A stretch of 15,297 bases of DNA, from the NCBI GenBank assembly GCA_019058275.1, contig JAHLVW010000084.1:1-15297 (forward strand), read 5' to 3'. Origin of the DNA: Candidatus Heimdallarchaeota archaeon. GTDB taxonomy: Archaea; Asgardarchaeota; Heimdallarchaeia; JABLTI01. The notes beneath the pieces are model-generated. The model made no database searches and had not been told where the DNA came from. It was given only the letters and a program-made list of their open reading frames with translations. Positions within the stretch are counted from its first letter, which is position 1. Each line of letters starts with the position of its first letter. Below are positions 748-13,309 of this stretch, in pieces. Both the position numbers and the translations under genes were made by a program.

Positions 748-966
748 ATGGGTTATAAAACTCTTAGTGTTAGTGATGAAATCTATGATCTTCTTTGTGC
801 TATGAAAGAAGATAATGAATCTTTCAACGATCTCTTTGCTAAGCTCATTCGTGGAAATGGCAAATATGTACTGAAATTCTATGGTCAACTTTCTGACTCT
901 TCTGATTTTGATAGTATCATGACTCAGATTTATAATGATAGAAAGAAAGAGATGGAACGTCTTTAA
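748..966 (+). CDS. vapB: VapB-type antitoxin (archaeal DUF217-like)
   Basis: N-terminal KTLSVSDEIYDLLCAMKEDNESFNDL matches the archaeal antitoxin pattern KTIxVSDExYxxLxxxKxxxESFS/N. It lies 2 nt upstream of a PIN gene. Confidence 0.85.
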   Translation: MGYKTLSVSDEIYDLLCAMKEDNESFNDLFAKLIRGNGKYVLKFYGQLSDSSDFDSIMTQIYNDRKKEMERL

Positions 967-968
967 CC

Positions 969-1367
969 ATGTCTTCTACCATCCATTTTGATACTAATCT
1001 CATTATTGACTTTCTTAAAGGAACACTTTCTCGTGCGGATATTGAACCTTTACTCAATCAAAACATTATCATGATTAGTGTTCTTGTTGAATATGAATTA
1101 AGACTTGGTCAAAGATTATCTAAAAGTCAGACGATTAAACAATTAGTTGAAGATTTCCTTAGATCTGTTATCATAGTTCCTCTTTCATCTGAAATTGTTG
1201 GAAAAGCAAGTGAAATACAGTCTAAGCAAATTTCCTTAGGTAAGCGATTGCCATTAATAGACCTGTTAATAGGAACAACTTCATTAATTCATAATGCGAA
1301 ATTACTGTCAAACGATAAAGATATGCAGAAACTAGCAGAATATGGTCTTGAAGTTATCACCTTTTAA
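969..1367 (+). CDS. vapC: VapC PIN-domain ribonuclease toxin
   Basis: The PIN acidic residues are present: FDTN, VEYEL, LIDLLIGTT, SNDKD. The 132-aa gene is tightly coupled to the antitoxin. Confidence 0.92.
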   Translation: MSSTIHFDTNLIIDFLKGTLSRADIEPLLNQNIIMISVLVEYELRLGQRLSKSQTIKQLVEDFLRSVIIVPLSSEIVGKASEIQSKQISLGKRLPLIDLLIGTTSLIHNAKLLSNDKDMQKLAEYGLEVITF

Positions 1368-3037: not shown

Positions 3038-4351
3038 TTAGAGCAGTTCATCTACACTTCTTCCTCTATTGTGTAAGCGCATTTTTAGTTCTGCCATAAG
3101 GTCTGCTCTTTTGAATGTATCTTCATCAACACCATCAGATGTGATACTTAATGCTTGATTTAGATAACGATTAAGTTGCAGGATATTACTGATAGTATCA
3201 TCTTCTATTTTTGAGCAGATAACTGTACTCATGTGCTCTGGCGATACTTTTTCAAAGAAGATATCAAATGCATCTATCTTAATGTGGCCTTCTCCTCCAA
3301 TTCTTACTTTTCCTAATTTGTTCATATATTCTTCTAAATTGATTTTTCTCAATGTTGCTTCAATTGATTGTAGAATATCTGGATTTCCTCCTTGTTGAAC
3401 AGCACCTACTACTAATTCTACATTTTCTGAATATACTGCTATTGCTACAAAACCAGCATTATTATCTAAAGTGGCTTCGATTATATCAGTTAATCTTACT
3501 GCTGTCTTTTCTCTAATTTTATCAGCATCAGTCTTTTTCATAGGTTTACTTATTGATGGTGGTGATACCATTGATTCACTTGCTTCAGTAGGCGGTGAGC
3601 TTATCGTAGGTGGCATAACTGCTGGAGGTTTCTGTGGTGGTACTGAAGGTTTACTTACAACAGGTGGTGTTACAGCTTTCTTTGGTGGTGTTTTTAGTTT
3701 AGATGTATCTACTTTCACAGGTTTCGTTAAGAATGACTCTTCTACTACTGGAGGTGCAACCTTAGTTACAGTAACTGGTGCTGTTACTGGTTTTCTTTCT
3801 ACAGTTAGTTTTGACATCTTATGTGGTAAATTGTCTAATAAAATTCTCTGGAAAATTTGGTTTGGGCTATCAGTATAGATACTCGTTATAGTTTTAACGA
3901 TTTCACCTGGAAAAATGTTATCTAGTGGTGCTAATAATTGTGCAACATGCTCTAATCCGTTTTTCAGTTGAGCTTCCATACCGGGATCGATTTTATTGAA
4001 TAGGAGATATGCTTTTACACCTTTTAAATGATTTACTACACTTTTAGTCCAAACTGAAAAGTAATTGGCAGTTTCTTGATATTTCAAAGAATTCTGAACA
4101 TCAACAACATAAACTATAGCGCATGCATCTTTTACAAGCTCAATATTGCCAATATATCCTTGCCTGAATTTTTTACCGCCTCCTGTATCAATGATTAAGA
4201 AATCAGATCTTAAGAAATCGTGATCATATTTAGCTATACCTCTTGTAGGAGGAATTTTCTGTAGTTGGGGTGGATTTTTCTTTTGGAAAAACCTTTGATA
4301 AAGTGCTGTTTTTCCTGCTCCGTCCAATCCTATTAGTAATATTTTCTGCAT
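3038..4351 (-). CDS. Rag/Arf-like small GTPase with Pro-rich linker and C-terminal roadblock-like domain
   Basis: G1 GLDGAGKT, G2 PTRG, G3 DTGGG, G4 NKID and a Rag-like G5 TSIY. Residues ~177-275 are Pro/Thr/Ser/Lys-rich. Residues ~280-405 show an alpha-beta-beta-alpha-beta-beta-beta-alpha pattern like a roadblock domain. Confidence 0.9.
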   Translation of the reverse strand: MQKILLIGLDGAGKTALYQRFFQKKNPPQLQKIPPTRGIAKYDHDFLRSDFLIIDTGGGKKFRQGYIGNIELVKDACAIVYVVDVQNSLKYQETANYFSVWTKSVVNHLKGVKAYLLFNKIDPGMEAQLKNGLEHVAQLLAPLDNIFPGEIVKTITSIYTDSPNQIFQRILLDNLPHKMSKLTVERKPVTAPVTVTKVAPPVVEESFLTKPVKVDTSKLKTPPKKAVTPPVVSKPSVPPQKPPAVMPPTISSPPTEASESMVSPPSISKPMKKTDADKIREKTAVRLTDIIEATLDNNAGFVAIAVYSENVELVVGAVQQGGNPDILQSIEATLRKINLEEYMNKLGKVRIGGEGHIKIDAFDIFFEKVSPEHMSTVICSKIEDDTISNILQLNRYLNQALSITSDGVDEDTFKRADLMAELKMRLHNRGRSVDELL

Positions 4352-4720: not shown

Positions 4721-5686
4721 GTGATCCAAGCTATATGGATTATCACTGAAACTGGACAATGTATTTTCAGTCACAAGTATGTTACACTAGATATTGACGA
4801 TCAATTGATTGCTGGTTTACTTACTGCTTTTGATGCTTTTTCAACTGAAAGTGGTATTGGTGGTGTACAACAAATCGCAGGTGAAGATAATCAATTTAAC
4901 TATGGGGCATCAGGCAAATTACTTGTTGCAGCTTTAGCAGATAAAAGTGATAATAGTAAATTAGTTGAAAACCTCATGACTAAAATTGCTGATTTATTCC
5001 AAGAAAAATATGCTGTTTATCTTCAAGATGTAGGTTTTGTTGATCTCAATGTATTTAATGGTTTTGAAGAAGAAATTGATCAGATTCTGAAACCAAAAGT
5101 TTACAGAAGAGGTGTTTTTTCAACGCTTTTTGCTACCTTTGTTACGATTGCATTAACTGCTGGTGTCTTATTTTCACTACTTAATTTCATTCAAGCACAA
5201 GAAGCAATTTTCATCTTATTCCTTGCATTCATTCCTGGGCTTTTCATTGGTGCAATAATTGCTGGTAAGAGCTCTTATGGTTTGATTTCCTCTACAATTG
5301 GAGTCATCCCCATTATATCACTAACTGCATATTATATCGTTATTAATACTATTCAAATTGCTCAAGATACTGGTGCAGATATCCCTTATGATACTATGAT
5401 CTTTACCATTGTATTAATGGCAGAGCAATTCATCACAATAGCAATATTGAGCGGTATTTTAGGTGGCGGATTTATAGATAGACGAAGATTATCGCCACTT
5501 TCTAAAAGTAGTAAACCTCTCGAAGTGTTTGCAGCAGGTGTTCCTATAACTACCCTTGATCTTGGAACCCAATTGCAACAACAACAATATCAGCAAGAGG
5601 TTGATACCCAACAGAATTATCAAACTGAATATAATGCTGAAAGTTCTTCACTTGTGGATGAACAAAAAACTGAATGGGATAGTTAA
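4721..5686 (+). CDS. Longin-domain membrane protein (longin + 4 TM + Gln/acidic tail)
   Basis: MIQAIWIITETGQCIFSHKY...DDQLIAGLLTAFDAF...IADLFQEKY...FNGFEEEIDQIL is the longin (sedlin/sigma-adaptin-like) pattern seen in Asgard proteins. Four hydrophobic segments lie at aa ~132-252. GTG start. Confidence 0.82.
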   Translation: MIQAIWIITETGQCIFSHKYVTLDIDDQLIAGLLTAFDAFSTESGIGGVQQIAGEDNQFNYGASGKLLVAALADKSDNSKLVENLMTKIADLFQEKYAVYLQDVGFVDLNVFNGFEEEIDQILKPKVYRRGVFSTLFATFVTIALTAGVLFSLLNFIQAQEAIFILFLAFIPGLFIGAIIAGKSSYGLISSTIGVIPIISLTAYYIVINTIQIAQDTGADIPYDTMIFTIVLMAEQFITIAILSGILGGGFIDRRRLSPLSKSSKPLEVFAAGVPITTLDLGTQLQQQQYQQEVDTQQNYQTEYNAESSSLVDEQKTEWDS

Positions 5687-7352: not shown

Positions 7353-7500
7353 TCTTTTTCCATCCAGTATTTATTATAAAATAAATCAACAAGATGAAAT
7401 AATAGTTTTTTTATTAGGTACTTATTAAACATATTTAGGAGTTTTTATATACTCCAGAGTATATTTCCATGAAGAAGCTATGTAAAAAGTGATTGTAGAT

Positions 7501-7710
7501 ATGAGTTCAAGTAAAAAAACACCTACCAAAAAAACATCCCTACTTGATGATGAAATTGAAGCTAGCTGTCCACATTGTGGTAGTGAGCATGTTTATGGTA
7601 TTAGTAGAGTTGTAGGTTATTTCTCGAAAATTGACTCATGGAATAACTCAAAATTTGCTGAGTTAAAGCAAAGACAAAAAGGTAATTATTGGACCAAAGA
7701 TGAGATTTGA
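7501..7710 (+). CDS. Stand-alone NrdD (class III ribonucleotide reductase) C-terminal Zn/glycyl-radical domain protein
   Basis: CPHCGSEHVYGISRVVGYFSKIDSWNNSKFAELKQR matches the NrdD C-terminus CPxCG...SRxxGY...WNxxKxxExxxR. ATG 7501 is preferred over GTG 7489. Confidence 0.85.
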   Translation: MSSSKKTPTKKTSLLDDEIEASCPHCGSEHVYGISRVVGYFSKIDSWNNSKFAELKQRQKGNYWTKDEI

Positions 7711-7806: not shown

Positions 7807-8103
7807 ATGATTTCGCAAAAGCAATTTCAATCGACTCTTAAGAAACTTTCCGGATTTGAAGGAGTTAGAGGAGTAATTATTACGAACAAAGAAGGTTTAC
7901 CAATATCAAGTGATATTGAAACTGATAAAACAGAATCTGTTGCTGCGCTTGTTTCATCCTTAGTTGGAAAAGCAACCCAAGCAGTTGAACAATTAGATGA
8001 AGGTGAATTAAACTTCTTTACTATTGACACTACTAAAGGTGAAATTCTAGTTGCTCCTGAAAACGACTATATTCTCATTGTTCTTAAAGGTAAAAAGAAA
8101 TAA
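7807..8103 (+). CDS. Roadblock/LC7 (MglB/LAMTOR2-like) protein
   Basis: [17 protein letters not shown]...AALVSSL...[17 protein letters not shown] is the canonical roadblock signature. GGAG lies upstream of the ATG. Confidence 0.93.
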
Positions 8104-8181: not shown

Positions 8182-8673
8182 TTAGAATTTCTCAAGTTCT
8201 TTTAGAGCTTCTTCTAAGTTGTCTTCCATGGATTCATGAGCAGCACTGGCTGCTTTTGCAGCAGCGGAGGTTGGAAATTGAATCTTTTCTGAAAGGAATT
8301 CATTTAAGAGTTTTTCAATTTCAGAAGCCTCTCTCTTTAATACTAACCGAACTAAGCCGATATTAACATCATTGTCTGTTATGACACAGAGTATCCCTTT
8401 ACCACAGCTCGCAGCAAAAATCTTACCTTTACCAAATTCAGAAGAAACGATATCCAAATCACCTAGATCAAGGTTTACACCCTGTTCTTCACTGGCAACG
8501 AAAACTGCACTGGCAATTGCTCCTACTCCATCTACATCTATTGGAAAATAGGAGAATTTTGATACGTGGGCAATTGTTAATCCAGTTCTATCAACCAGAA
8601 TTACTTTTCTTATGCCAGCTTCTGCTTTGATAATTTTACTTAAGACATTGTCGAAGGCTTTTACGTTTATCAA
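8182..8673 (-). CDS. Roadblock/LC7 (MglB-like) protein with C-terminal extension
   Basis: GIRKVILVDRTGLTIA...GAIASAVFVASEEQG...EFGKGKIFAASCGKGILCVITDNDVNIGLVRL is a roadblock domain, followed by an Ala-rich linker and an acidic amphipathic terminal helix. TTG start. Confidence 0.92.
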   Translation of the reverse strand: MINVKAFDNVLSKIIKAEAGIRKVILVDRTGLTIAHVSKFSYFPIDVDGVGAIASAVFVASEEQGVNLDLGDLDIVSSEFGKGKIFAASCGKGILCVITDNDVNIGLVRLVLKREASEIEKLLNEFLSEKIQFPTSAAAKAASAAHESMEDNLEEALKELEKF

Positions 8674-8891
8674 ATTCCTGACCTCTTGATCAGTTCTTTT
8701 AATTTAACTTTGAATTAAATTAACTTACCTTACTAATATTTTTGCAATCGGATTTATAAGGATTCATGTTTCTGTAATTTCTGTACAGATGGTTTTCGTC
8801 CTAATTTTCCACTTTGGTTACTTTTTTATTAGTATAGCTTTTATTTTAGAACTAGTTTAACAATATCTAATCATTTGGAGTTGTCATTACC

Positions 8892-9716
8892 TTGAGTAAA
8901 CCCGAGAAAGGGAAGGATACTAAATATATTATAACTGTTAGGGCACTATGTGATATTTGCAAAAATGTTGACACATTTCAGATTCCCACTAAAGATCTTT
9001 TACCTCATATTGGAGGATTATACCAAGTCTCTACAATTCATCATTGCAATGACAATAAGGAAATGGTCATAAATATTGTTCTTGATCGTAACTTTGCAGT
9101 TAGGCAATCATCTGTTTCTCCTTTTGTTGCAGAACGCGAAATTGACCGTTGGTCACCAGAGAAAGTTAATAATATTAGATTTTTAGTAAAGCAAGTCAAG
9201 GAAGCTGATAGAGTTGTTCAAGCTGTGCTTTCAAATAGAACAGTGGTTATTGCTAGTAATAATAAGACCTTTGTTACAAAGATTGTGCATACTTTAGAAT
9301 TGTTTTCACCTACAAGGTTTCCACAATCAGTAGATTGGACTGATAAAGTACTTGAGGATAAAAAAATAATTGGAACATCTCCTGCAGTAGCGAAGGATTA
9401 TAAAAATGTAGTTCTTGTCAATTTAGACACAAAAAAAGTTACCAATGTAAAACCAGCTAATTACTGTCAAACCTTCTTAGATAGTTTAGTTACTTTGGAA
9501 CCAATTGGAATGGCATATGCTGCTAGATTAAAAATTAGCAATCTTATTGAGTTTGCAAAAATGCTAATTGATTTAAGTAAAGAACCTGAGATTGGACCAA
9601 GAGCTATTGATCTTGTAAGAATGGATGTTAGTGCAGATGCTTTGGAGCTAATTCTAGAAATAGTTGATGGTTTTGATCCCACTGCTACTCAGATAATTAA
9701 AGAGAATTGGATTTAA
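8892..9716 (+). CDS. Putative DENN/folliculin-C-like protein with N-terminal Zn-binding domain
   Basis: The N-terminus has CDIC...HHC...VLDRNFAVR. Residues ~95-185 (VVQAVLSNRTVVIASNNKTFVTKIVHTLELFSP...IIGTS...VVLVNLDTKKV) follow the cDENN pattern. The C-terminus is helical. TTG start with GGAG upstream. Confidence 0.65.
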   Translation: MSKPEKGKDTKYIITVRALCDICKNVDTFQIPTKDLLPHIGGLYQVSTIHHCNDNKEMVINIVLDRNFAVRQSSVSPFVAEREIDRWSPEKVNNIRFLVKQVKEADRVVQAVLSNRTVVIASNNKTFVTKIVHTLELFSPTRFPQSVDWTDKVLEDKKIIGTSPAVAKDYKNVVLVNLDTKKVTNVKPANYCQTFLDSLVTLEPIGMAYAARLKISNLIEFAKMLIDLSKEPEIGPRAIDLVRMDVSADALELILEIVDGFDPTATQIIKENWI

Positions 9717-11035: not shown

Positions 11036-13309
11036 TTATAATGAAGCAGAGATTATTCCAATTAGCACAACAAAATCCTTTATAGGCAGCTCATCAACTT
11101 TTTTACTTTGCGATACTTTTAGGCTTTGAGTTTTACAAAATGCTGAAAAATTAAATAGATCCTTTGCTAATTGCTGAACTTCTCCCTTTAATGTATCAAT
11201 TACCATACTAAAGATTTCAGCAGATTTCCTTGAGTATTTTTCTGCAGCTCTAAATAGCTTCTCAGCTTTTACTCTTTCTTTTATGTTTGCAAACTCCTGT
11301 GCTTGAATAATAGCTTGACATGATTTGAAGAAAAGCATTGCTCCTTCTGTATGAGCTCTTTTCTTTTCAATATACTCCCAGTTAACTACATCTTCAGATG
11401 TGATTTGATACTTTTTCTTGTGTTTTAAAATCGCTTCATAATGAGATGTCAGTCTTTCCCAAATAGTAATCATTGAATCGAACATATACCCATGATTTTC
11501 TATTATTAAAATAGCAATTTCGATAGGAACTTTGCTCAAATCCATTGTAGCTAAAATGTCAGGTAATGTCCGAAGTAAATACCTTGCAAAGAAATATTGG
11601 TTGCCTATTTGGAGAATTGATGCTTCTTTCAAATGACTTTGAACTAAGGTTCTACTAAATTCGTATTTGACAAATTCTTGCAATTCTTCCAATACTACCC
11701 CTTTTTCGAGATTCTCATATGATTCATGTGCACTAAGGAAGCTCTTAACGAGCATACAAAGAGCTTTTGTTGAATTCTTTTCTTTCAAACCTTTGAGTCT
11801 GTAACCTTCGCTCAATAGAATATTCAATAGTACTTTACTTTTGGAAATGAGTGTTTTCCTATCTTTAACAAAGGGTGGTATAAGGAGAATCGATATTAGA
11901 ATATCTTGTATTTTTACTGTTTCAGTATCACAAAAAGCATTTTTTATTTCTAGATCAACAAGATCATCAATCCAGGGTAGTTGTAGAAAAGCTCTACCAA
12001 TGTTATCTATCCTACCCTTGAAAATTACACCTAGTCGTCTAAATCCTTTCTTTATTTCAGTCTTGATTCTTTCTTTTGTTAGGTTTTCATGTTTAGCTAG
12101 AATCTTAAGATTCTCCAAAACAAAACCGACGGTGTTCAAGAATTCGGATTGATTGTAAAATTCAATGTTTGATAGTGGCGCTTCTGATAGTGAAGTTAAA
12201 CTACTGATTCTTGCATTCAGATCCTTCTTTGTTAATTCTTCTGAAGATATTTCGATAATTGAGCATGTTAATGCTACTAATGTTGTAAATACCTCAGTAA
12301 ATTCAATGTTAACTTCAATTTGCTCAATTAGATCTTTAGAGAGAGATGATTCCACTGGTATTTGATTTATTTCCTTTAAGCTTTCATTGAATTCTTTATT
12401 TGCTAACATAAAACAATCATAAGCGTGTTGATGGTTGTCTCGCATAAGTGAATTTATTGCCAATTCAAGATAATAGGAACCGGTTGCTATTTTTGCTTGC
12501 CCTTTACAAATAGCAATTTCAAAATCAATGGTTAAAAGTAAGCTTGGATCGAGTGGATTTTTTAATAGTATCTCTCGAGCCTCTGAAAAGAATTTATCTG
12601 CTCTTGTAAAGATAAAGAATTTTAGTAATTGGTCATCCCACCAGAAATTTTCTTTGGCAAATTCCAATACTTGGGAGTAGTTGTCTTTGTATAATGTTCC
12701 TTTACATCGAAGATTTTTGATTTTTTGTTCTAATAACAAATCCTTGTGTTTATTCTTTTTACCTTTGTTTAATGATTCTAGATTTGTATACAATTGTGAT
12801 TCAAAATTTATCTTCCCAATTGAAGTCATCATTTTGAGGAATTCTTCATCTATTAGCAACTCTTTTCCTAAACTGAATAGAATTATTTCAGAAAGCTCAT
12901 GCATTTGTTGGGCATAATCATCAATAATAGGAGAATCTTTTATTGTTTTGAAAACTCCTTCCAACATAGTCTCATAATAAAGCAATGAAAGAACGCGAGC
13001 AAAGAACTCAAGAAGGATAGATTGGTCTCGAGATCTTGAGACAACTTCAAATGCCTTGGGATTACTCCTTAAGGATTTGATATTTTCGGATAATGTTTCT
13101 TGATATTCGTATCGTTCAAGCCTTGAGGCTGTAGCAATTTGATTGAGAGAGATAGCGCAAACTTTAGCAAAATCAGGCCATTTTGAACAGATTTCCTCAA
13201 TTTTCACTCCTTTAACAGAGGAAAAAATCTCCTTTTTATGTGAGTCAAAAGTAACTAAACGATCAAAAAGTTGCTCCTTCAATACATCAAATAATTCAGC
13301 TTTAGACAT
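11036..13309 (-). CDS. Large predominantly alpha-helical hypothetical protein (possible TPR-like solenoid)
   Basis: 757-aa ORF rich in L/I/E/K, with TPR-like helix pairs (HQHAYDCFMLANKEF; KAEKLFRAAEKYSRKSAEIF). No TM segment or catalytic motif seen. Confidence 0.8.
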   Translation of the reverse strand: MSKAELFDVLKEQLFDRLVTFDSHKKEIFSSVKGVKIEEICSKWPDFAKVCAISLNQIATASRLERYEYQETLSENIKSLRSNPKAFEVVSRSRDQSILLEFFARVLSLLYYETMLEGVFKTIKDSPIIDDYAQQMHELSEIILFSLGKELLIDEEFLKMMTSIGKINFESQLYTNLESLNKGKKNKHKDLLLEQKIKNLRCKGTLYKDNYSQVLEFAKENFWWDDQLLKFFIFTRADKFFSEAREILLKNPLDPSLLLTIDFEIAICKGQAKIATGSYYLELAINSLMRDNHQHAYDCFMLANKEFNESLKEINQIPVESSLSKDLIEQIEVNIEFTEVFTTLVALTCSIIEISSEELTKKDLNARISSLTSLSEAPLSNIEFYNQSEFLNTVGFVLENLKILAKHENLTKERIKTEIKKGFRRLGVIFKGRIDNIGRAFLQLPWIDDLVDLEIKNAFCDTETVKIQDILISILLIPPFVKDRKTLISKSKVLLNILLSEGYRLKGLKEKNSTKALCMLVKSFLSAHESYENLEKGVVLEELQEFVKYEFSRTLVQSHLKEASILQIGNQYFFARYLLRTLPDILATMDLSKVPIEIAILIIENHGYMFDSMITIWERLTSHYEAILKHKKKYQITSEDVVNWEYIEKKRAHTEGAMLFFKSCQAIIQAQEFANIKERVKAEKLFRAAEKYSRKSAEIFSMVIDTLKGEVQQLAKDLFNFSAFCKTQSLKVSQSKKVDELPIKDFVVLIGIISASL

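Follow-up and report, generated by a model that had tools for sequence, protein, structure and literature searches.

DENN proteins in Asgard archaea have been published by Liu et al. (bioRxiv 10.1101/2020.10.19.343400; Nature 2021), so the identification of DENN in this group is not new, and later papers count it among the Asgard eukaryote-signature domains. The text of the preprint describes a conserved Asgard operon of Roadblock, Rab-like GTPase, and DENN genes, for which a role as guanine nucleotide exchange factor (GEF) is proposed, together with Heimdall folliculin (FLCN)-like proteins of longin plus DENN composition and expanded DENN paralogs with non-eukaryotic architectures; that text, figure 5b and the tables aside, makes no mention of a zinc domain on DENN proteins. 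Longins of the GTPase-activating protein (GAP) class, i.e. those of the FLCN/SMCR8/NPRL2 type, carry a GP motif in the loop that joins strand 1 to strand 2, as well as a catalytic arginine finger (PMC12290439), while folliculin and Lst7 possess a conserved putative N-terminal zinc site, HxCx2H ... Cx2C, before or within the longin region (PMC3438538; PMC4703059). Which Asgard regulator pairs with which GTPase can rarely be told (Tran et al. 2024, PMC10933270). Against this background, we analyzed a gene at positions 8892-9716 (+ strand) in a 15,297-nucleotide stretch of DNA (hereafter the window) from Candidatus Heimdallarchaeota archaeon (contig JAHLVW010000084.1, assembly GCA_019058275.1).

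An original prediction, made from the sequence of the window, had proposed that this gene encodes a DENN/folliculin-like core in which a zinc-binding domain replaces the longin part. Our analysis points to a probable identity along these lines: an Asgard-specific protein of the DENN superfamily, with a putative zinc-binding beta domain in the place of the longin, acting as a small-GTPase regulator. The protein most likely belongs, as a subunit, to a complex that regulates a small GTPase; its partners and its activity (GAP, GEF, or scaffold) are inferred. The elements of the gene are as follows:

8892..9716, + strand: whole gene, encoding the putative zinc-domain and DENN protein P0001 (open reading frame, translation, 57 homologs, AlphaFold2 model with a predicted local distance difference test (pLDDT) score of 85.5)
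8919..9137, + strand: N-terminal putative zinc-binding all-beta domain, residues ~10-82, six strands, no helix
8949..8960, + strand: first predicted zinc knuckle, C20-x-x-C23, within the strand 1-2 hairpin (codons tgt, tgc; invariant in alignments A1, A2, A3, and A5)
9039..9047, + strand: second predicted zinc knuckle, H50-x-C52, closing strand 4 (codons cat, cat, tgc; H50 invariant everywhere)
9084..9104, + strand: D65...R71 (LDRNFAVRQ), at the turn leading to the final strand; candidate functional site that may include an arginine finger (invariant in all domain alignments)
9147..9455, + strand: cDENN-like alpha/beta core, residues ~86-188
9456..9704, + strand: dDENN-like helical region, residues ~189-271 (helices 190-199, 204-229, 235-243, 248-261, and 263-271, within the DENN structural alignments)

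A conserved gene of one Heimdall family

The window is AT-rich (~32% G+C), and eukaryote-signature genes typical of Asgard archaea run along it. The open reading frame, whose translation was read directly, begins with TTG and specifies 274 amino acids (aa); the annotated start is right, because the N-terminus 'MSK..' is common to orthologs that start with ATG. A search of 5.8 billion proteins returned 57 homologs with 49-81% identity, all from Heimdall-type or 'Asgard group' metagenome bins, and those that carry a name are called 'hypothetical protein'. With these 57 homologs and a DENN fold match clear of the next fold by 7 Z-units, this is a real, conserved gene beyond chance. Whole-genome searches recovered an ortholog in 11 of 11 other genomes of its own family (f1, comprising two genera), and in the other families of the class only distant paralogs.

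Existing annotation says little about the protein. Scanning it against Pfam and NCBIfam gave one spurious match to an Ehrlichia repeat and nothing else, and an ESM Atlas search yielded no usable match. Most homologs are annotated with PF27109.1, a Pfam family newer than the Pfam copy that we used; judged by which fragments carry the accession, PF27109 covers the central/DENN region, and it is not recorded on the stand-alone zinc-domain proteins described below. A literature search turned up no publication on PF27109.

The C-terminal two-thirds adopt a predicted DENN fold

The AlphaFold2 model, built from the family alignment, is laid out as six strands within residues 13-81, an alpha/beta part at 89-185, and five helices within 190-271. 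The core comprises helix 105-113 (..AVL), strand 118-121 (VVIA), and helix 125-136 (KTFVTKIVHTLE), with later strands at 146-150, 159-162 (IIGT), and 174-177 (VLVN). This matches the cDENN order that the original prediction had given, namely a helix ending in AVL, a strand, a helix, and strands IIG and VVLVN. The modeled architecture is that by which the DENN superfamily is recognized: a cDENN alpha/beta core followed by a dDENN helical subdomain. When the model was searched against the PDB with Foldseek, the top 11 matches were solely DENN proteins (E 5e-5 to 3e-3), including C9orf72, SMCR8, DENND1B, DENND1A, and folliculin (several entries). The DENN match stands 7 Z-units above the first unrelated fold and covers both subdomains. 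The predicted fold is that of the cDENN alpha/beta sandwich, with no better unrelated family, and the DENN/folliculin-like core proposed at the outset holds.

At the sequence level, the link between the protein and DENN is faint when drawn directly and solid through intermediate relatives. The sole PDB profile match, to SMCR8 residues 714-757, falls on the stretch 'AVLS - VVV - helix - LxLFxP', i.e. on the very helix-strand-helix that had been singled out. Among 1.8 billion representatives we found 52 relatives, including proteins of 330-380 aa and of about 560 aa; some of the distant ones show weak, sub-threshold matches to Folliculin_C, Folliculin, C9orf72-like, or longin models. Profile-profile comparison with hhalign then aligned the family with 14 Asgard longin-DENN proteins over residues 85-270 (probability 99.9%, E 1.6e-31). 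Sequence links to DENN-type profiles run indirectly, through these paralogs and relatives, and not through a direct Pfam match. A longin-DENN paralog in the same genome (L020:5503-6642, 379 aa) passes the Pfam Folliculin threshold (25.2 bits against a cut-off of 23.3) and carries the 'IGP' and 'RGGQR' motifs of GAP-type longins. As one component of a reading that we judge probable as a whole, the C-terminal 190 residues would constitute a cDENN plus dDENN unit homologous to folliculin, SMCR8, and C9orf72.

The N-terminus forms a putative zinc-stapled beta domain

The model of the N-terminal domain by itself, built from 17 sequences (pLDDT 88.5), contains six strands and zero helices. C20xxC23 lies within the hairpin 13-19/26-32, and H50xC52 closes strand 43-52. 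Across 24 aligned family members, the invariant positions are C20, C23, H39, H50, and C52 together with the block L-D65-R-N-x-x-V-R71-Q; the invariance of H39 is limited to the close family. H51, which the original prediction had listed with C20, C23, H50, and C52, varies across the same alignment and drops out of the set, while the other four stand. C, C, and H are also fixed in distant relatives. The fourth ligand position is a Cys in the family of our protein and a His, shifted across the hairpin, in paralogs and stand-alone forms. Such a Cys/His swap with the remaining C, C, and H fixed is, as far as alignments can tell, a pattern typical of a real metal site. Two Cys/His pairs, two hairpin knuckles, and Cys/His interchange, the marks of a zinc ribbon or knuckle, are all present, and metal binding is predicted on that basis; no zinc-ribbon structure ranked among the fold matches of the domain-only model in 48,161 chains. 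Conservation extends beyond the ligands: the residues C, C, G, H, D, and R never change between the 274-aa fusions and the 73-aa stand-alone proteins, and no alignment departs from G42, D65, or R71, even where overall identity is as low as 13-30%.

Several comparisons separate this domain from the longin. hhalign detected no similarity between it and the longin part of the Asgard longin-DENN paralogs, and Foldseek and VIA-align searches with the domain-only model gave noise-level matches, with no longin or roadblock structure standing out among the 48,161 chains. The GP motif of GAP longins is absent from the protein, in which the loop between strands 1 and 2 is the CxxC knuckle. An invariant Arg (R71), accompanied by an invariant Asp (D65), sits where the chain turns toward the final strand and would be a candidate equivalent of the longin arginine finger. 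With no helices, no fold match, and no hhalign link to the longin paralogs, the original view that the N-terminus is not a longin is upheld. Within the same reading, graded jointly with the DENN assignment as probable, it would be a zinc-stapled beta domain with C20, C23, H50, and C52 as ligands. It is apparently uncatalogued.

Distribution of the zinc domain and its linkage to GTPase genes

The zinc domain has a far wider distribution than the DENN fusion. Of 301 Asgard genomes drawn from all over the phylum, 211 gave a match to its hidden Markov model (HMM), among them 68 of the 90 high-quality ones. Stand-alone zinc-domain proteins measure 73-106 aa and occur in places in tandem; the domain is also N-terminal in proteins of 240-330 aa and C-terminal in proteins of 124-377 aa. 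Neither DENN HMMs nor hhalign detected a DENN part in the 240-330-aa proteins of other Asgard families. Fusion to DENN was found only in family f1, where the paralogs fall into three types of about 240, 274, and 505-617 aa. The stand-alone form of Hodarchaeales has no Pfam family on record and is labeled 'hypothetical' or mis-named YacG (YacG-like at JGI). The domain is autonomous and spread across the Asgard phylum.

For genomic context, we drew 35 loci as two samples from the match list, blind to gene context. A Ras-family GTPase gene is directly adjacent and co-directional at eight of them (L036, L042, L043, L046, L047, L055, L060, and L063), which stem from five families, with some of the pairs overlapping start to stop; at two further loci (L051 and L064) such a gene lies within 1.6 kb. 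By a rough estimate, the chance of a GTPase as immediate neighbor is ~2-4%; the genome carrying our window has 32 Ras-family matches in 4.1 Mb. We attach no formal probability to the adjacency because the loci are not fully independent. The zinc-domain gene often abuts a Ras-family GTPase gene. At L043:3888-5770, the GTPase gene shares 1 base with the start of the next gene, whose 240-aa product carries the zinc domain at its N-terminus, and a gene for an S-adenosylmethionine methyltransferase faces the pair; L036 presents the same pair of GTPase and zinc-domain genes. Linkage extends to a DENN-containing paralog: in our own genome (L021:4484-6837, contig C55), a 504-aa protein made of zinc domain, DENN, and a C-terminal half of ~240 aa with no assignment is encoded tail-to-tail with a 220-aa Ras-family GTPase, and the pairing of this paralog with a Ras-like gene recurs in three genomes of the genus (L021 itself, L031, and L032).

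Separately, in one Asgard family, stand-alone zinc-domain genes form adjacent tandem pairs of 78+106 aa (L045:4977-5545) and 75+106 aa (L052:2786-3349), whose products might be heterodimers.

Gene neighborhood

The gene is transcribed singly, head-to-head with a gene for a 163-aa MglB-like Roadblock protein and tail-to-tail with an AlaX-like tRNA-editing gene. The neighboring features relevant to its possible function are listed below, from the nearest outward:

8674..8891, unstranded: divergent intergenic region of 218 bp shared with the MglB-like Roadblock gene (head-to-head arrangement also seen in the sister genus and in five more genomes of the genus)
8182..8673, - strand: 163-aa Roadblock/LC7 protein, MglB-like, divergent neighbor (Pfam Robl_LC7 E 2e-10, MAPKK1_Int E 5e-7; PDB MglB E 1e-4)
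7807..8103, + strand: 98-aa Roadblock/LC7 protein, LAMTOR5-like (Pfam Robl_LC7 E 9e-22, LAMTOR5 E 6e-7; syntenic in both genera, g1 and g2)
7489-7710, + strand: 73-aa protein that aligns solely with the final 43 positions of Pfam NRDD, i.e. its zinc-ribbon and glycyl-radical tail (E 1.9e-10; place kept in both genera)
4721..5686, + strand: 321-aa protein with an N-terminal longin-like domain followed by hydrophobic segments, candidate longin in trans (Pfam Longin at only E 0.047; syntenic)
3038..4351, - strand: 437-aa Gtr1/RagA-like GTPase, candidate client (Pfam Gtr1_RagA E 2.3e-13)

Upstream of our gene, this series also includes a 233-aa protein with no assignment and a Yip1-like membrane protein. 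The block of GTPase, longin-like membrane protein, Yip1-like protein, two Roadblock proteins, and the zinc-domain/DENN gene is conserved across five further genomes of the genus and, for the most part, in the sister genus; the 218-bp spacing recurs in L018 and L019. Both Roadblock proteins are 89-99% identical across the family, compared with 44-80% for their neighbors, which points to unusually strong constraint on both, as far as identities can reveal it. The MglB-like one is 91-98% identical within the family and occurs class-wide, in 40 of 41 genomes. In the sister genus, the zinc-domain/DENN protein is only 50% identical, against ~90% for the Roadblock proteins.

The Rag-like GTPase has DTGGGK as its G3 motif, and all six orthologs examined (6/6) carry DxGG[G/A]K in place of DxxGQ, so that the catalytic Gln is gone; such a GTPase would therefore plausibly need a partner for GTP hydrolysis. 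Its G domain is followed by a Pro-rich linker of ~90 residues and then by a highly conserved domain that makes up the C-terminal ~150 residues; a PDB sequence search with this domain found nothing, so that a roadblock nature was not confirmed by that search. Its clear orthologs, like those of the zinc-domain/DENN protein, are found in family f1 only.

The N-terminal ~100 aa of the 321-aa protein resemble the longin domain of two longin-DENN fusions, P0087 (BLASTP E 2e-5) and P0091 (2e-3), and the DENN part of P0087 is a relative of our protein. This similarity is a Rosetta-stone hint, and no more, of a longin supplied in trans. The original prediction had regarded our protein as a split DENN whose longin partner may come from this very gene; the longin similarity and the retention of the gene in the cluster agree with that proposal, whereas its premise of a missing part fits worse. 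Replacement by another GTPase-linked domain fits better, because the zinc domain is autonomous, widespread, and GTPase-linked.

Two further observations were made in the window. A 757-aa protein encoded at 11036-13309 (- strand) has no Pfam or NCBIfam match, is 54-95% identical across the family, and stays beside the AlaX-like gene and the zinc-domain/DENN gene. A vapB/vapC pair (antitoxin and PIN) at 748-1367 (+ strand) lies upstream of a histidine kinase gene and is also found beside the cluster in L016.

Functional interpretation and alternative explanations

In the explanation that we favor, the zinc domain would engage a small GTPase, possibly with R71 as an arginine finger, and the DENN part may provide a dimerization or scaffold surface, by analogy with FLCN-FNIP and C9orf72-SMCR8. 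The protein would act with the other products of the cluster—the MglB-like and LAMTOR5-like Roadblock proteins, the membrane-anchored longin protein, and the Rag/Gtr-like GTPase, the last of which would depend on a partner for GTP hydrolysis. A bolder extension, which we put forward as tentative, would make the zinc domain an uncatalogued, Asgard-wide GTPase partner domain, maybe minimally GAP-like via its Asp/Arg pair, that occurs alone or fused to various bodies and replaced the longin on a DENN scaffold in one Heimdall family.

A number of points weigh against the favored explanation. The Pfam DENN, Folliculin_C, and C9orf72 models do not match the protein even at E 0.1, and the SMCR8 profile match (E 0.47) is not significant alone; because the direct sequence matches are sub-threshold, DENN membership is drawn from the predicted structure and transitive profile links. 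Strand order is the sole basis for the roles proposed for R71 and D65; it would also place the D65-R71 turn, together with the 'LLPHIGG' loop, on the far side of the domain from the zinc site. The GTPase nearest to our gene is 4.5 kb and six genes off, on mixed strands and not adjacent, and in one genome of the genus (L015/G006), the sole exception among those fetched, the gene sits ~30 kb from the rest of the cluster. Synteny within one family is in any case weak evidence for function. Of the zinc-domain loci sampled, no more than roughly one in four has a GTPase gene next to it.

Among the alternatives, the one that survives best, though we consider it improbable, is a classical DENN-type GEF, as DENND1 is for Rab35, which would act through cDENN/dDENN on a Rab- or Ras-like GTPase encoded elsewhere; the zinc domain would then be a cap or targeting element, and the Roadblock and Rag-like neighbors would be unrelated. 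The genome has 32 Ras-family matches, the gene is transcribed singly and in no operon with a GTPase gene, and a GEF role is what the preprint text of Liu et al. proposes for the Asgard Roadblock-GTPase-DENN operon. However, the invariant D/R pair and the operon linkage to GTPases where a DENN part is undetectable argue that the zinc domain is more than a cap.

Slightly less credible still is a miniature GAP subunit of the folliculin/SMCR8 longin-plus-DENN type, in which the N-terminal domain would be a degenerate longin that lost its helices and gained a zinc staple, with R71 as the longin arginine finger (FLCN R164, SMCR8 R147, NPRL2 R78). The number of strands and their order (a hairpin, then a short connector and a three-strand meander) can be read as a longin sheet minus helix 1, and R71 lies at the start of the last strand, which we take to be the position of the FLCN arginine finger in its longin as well. 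The Foldseek alignments to C9orf72 and DENND1B span 286-325 columns, beyond the DENN part alone, and folliculin and Lst7 have a putative N-terminal zinc site of their own, although with its ligands in the opposite order. This reading is countered by the helix-free model, by the comparisons with longin paralogs and known structures given above, and by the GP motif, which is absent here and present in the longin-DENN paralog of the same genome. Moreover, the zinc domain occurs alone and at the C-terminus of other proteins, and to our knowledge neither occurrence has been reported for uDENN longin domains.

A protein with no GTPase role, in which a nucleic-acid- or protein-binding zinc ribbon is joined to a Rossmann-like/helical lookalike of DENN, could draw on the YacG-like label that JGI gives to some stand-alone copies and on the convergent AlaX-like tRNA-editing gene, but is very unlikely given the lead of DENN proteins over every other fold across both subdomains, the strong profile homology to paralogs with folliculin-type longin domains, the repeated adjoining of Ras-family GTPase genes in five Asgard families, and a translation in which no Walker A motif (GxxxxGK[ST]) was seen when read by eye, without a motif search.

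Implications

Asgard genomes contain genes for dozens of small GTPases as well as for numerous longin, Roadblock, and DENN proteins. This locus, together with the wide distribution of its zinc domain, suggests two pairings that can be tested. One joins a DENN protein with a Rag-like GTPase devoid of the catalytic Gln, two Roadblock proteins, and a membrane-anchored longin, a combination reminiscent of Rag-Ragulator-folliculin. The other links a small zinc domain to Ras-family GTPases, next to which it is encoded, operon-like, in five or more Asgard families. Should this domain prove to engage GTPases, it would represent a new kind of regulator domain. The longin-plus-DENN composition of folliculin, SMCR8, and the DENNDs would then be one among several arrangements explored by the archaeal relatives of eukaryotes. 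On the tentative extension above, DENN scaffolds would have borne exchangeable GTPase-engaging heads before longin plus DENN became fixed in eukaryotes.

Comparison with known systems

Like the operon described by Liu et al., the locus combines an Asgard DENN protein with an adjacent Roadblock gene and a small GTPase nearby; unlike that operon, the GTPase of the cluster is Rag/Gtr-like, not Rab-like, and lies outside the operon of the DENN gene. The published longin-plus-DENN (FLCN-like) type is also encoded in the same genome, by the 379-aa paralog. The structural match to the Rab35 exchange factors DENND1A and DENND1B (3TW8, 6EKK) is lower and looser (root-mean-square deviation 6.7-6.8 A), and the longin (uDENN) lobe that contributes to the GEF unit of DENND1 has no counterpart in our protein. 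The zinc site of folliculin has its ligands in the reverse of the order seen here (CxxC then HxC), and no homology between the two was detected. Identity to the DENN proteins folliculin (3V42; FLCN in 6NZD) and SMCR8/C9orf72 (6LT0, 7O2W, 7MGE) amounts to 14-17%, and at 274 aa our protein contrasts with the 579 to 937 aa of that set. Where folliculin, SMCR8, and C9orf72 have a longin with a GP motif and an arginine finger, the Heimdall protein has a helix-free, putatively zinc-binding domain of 70 residues.
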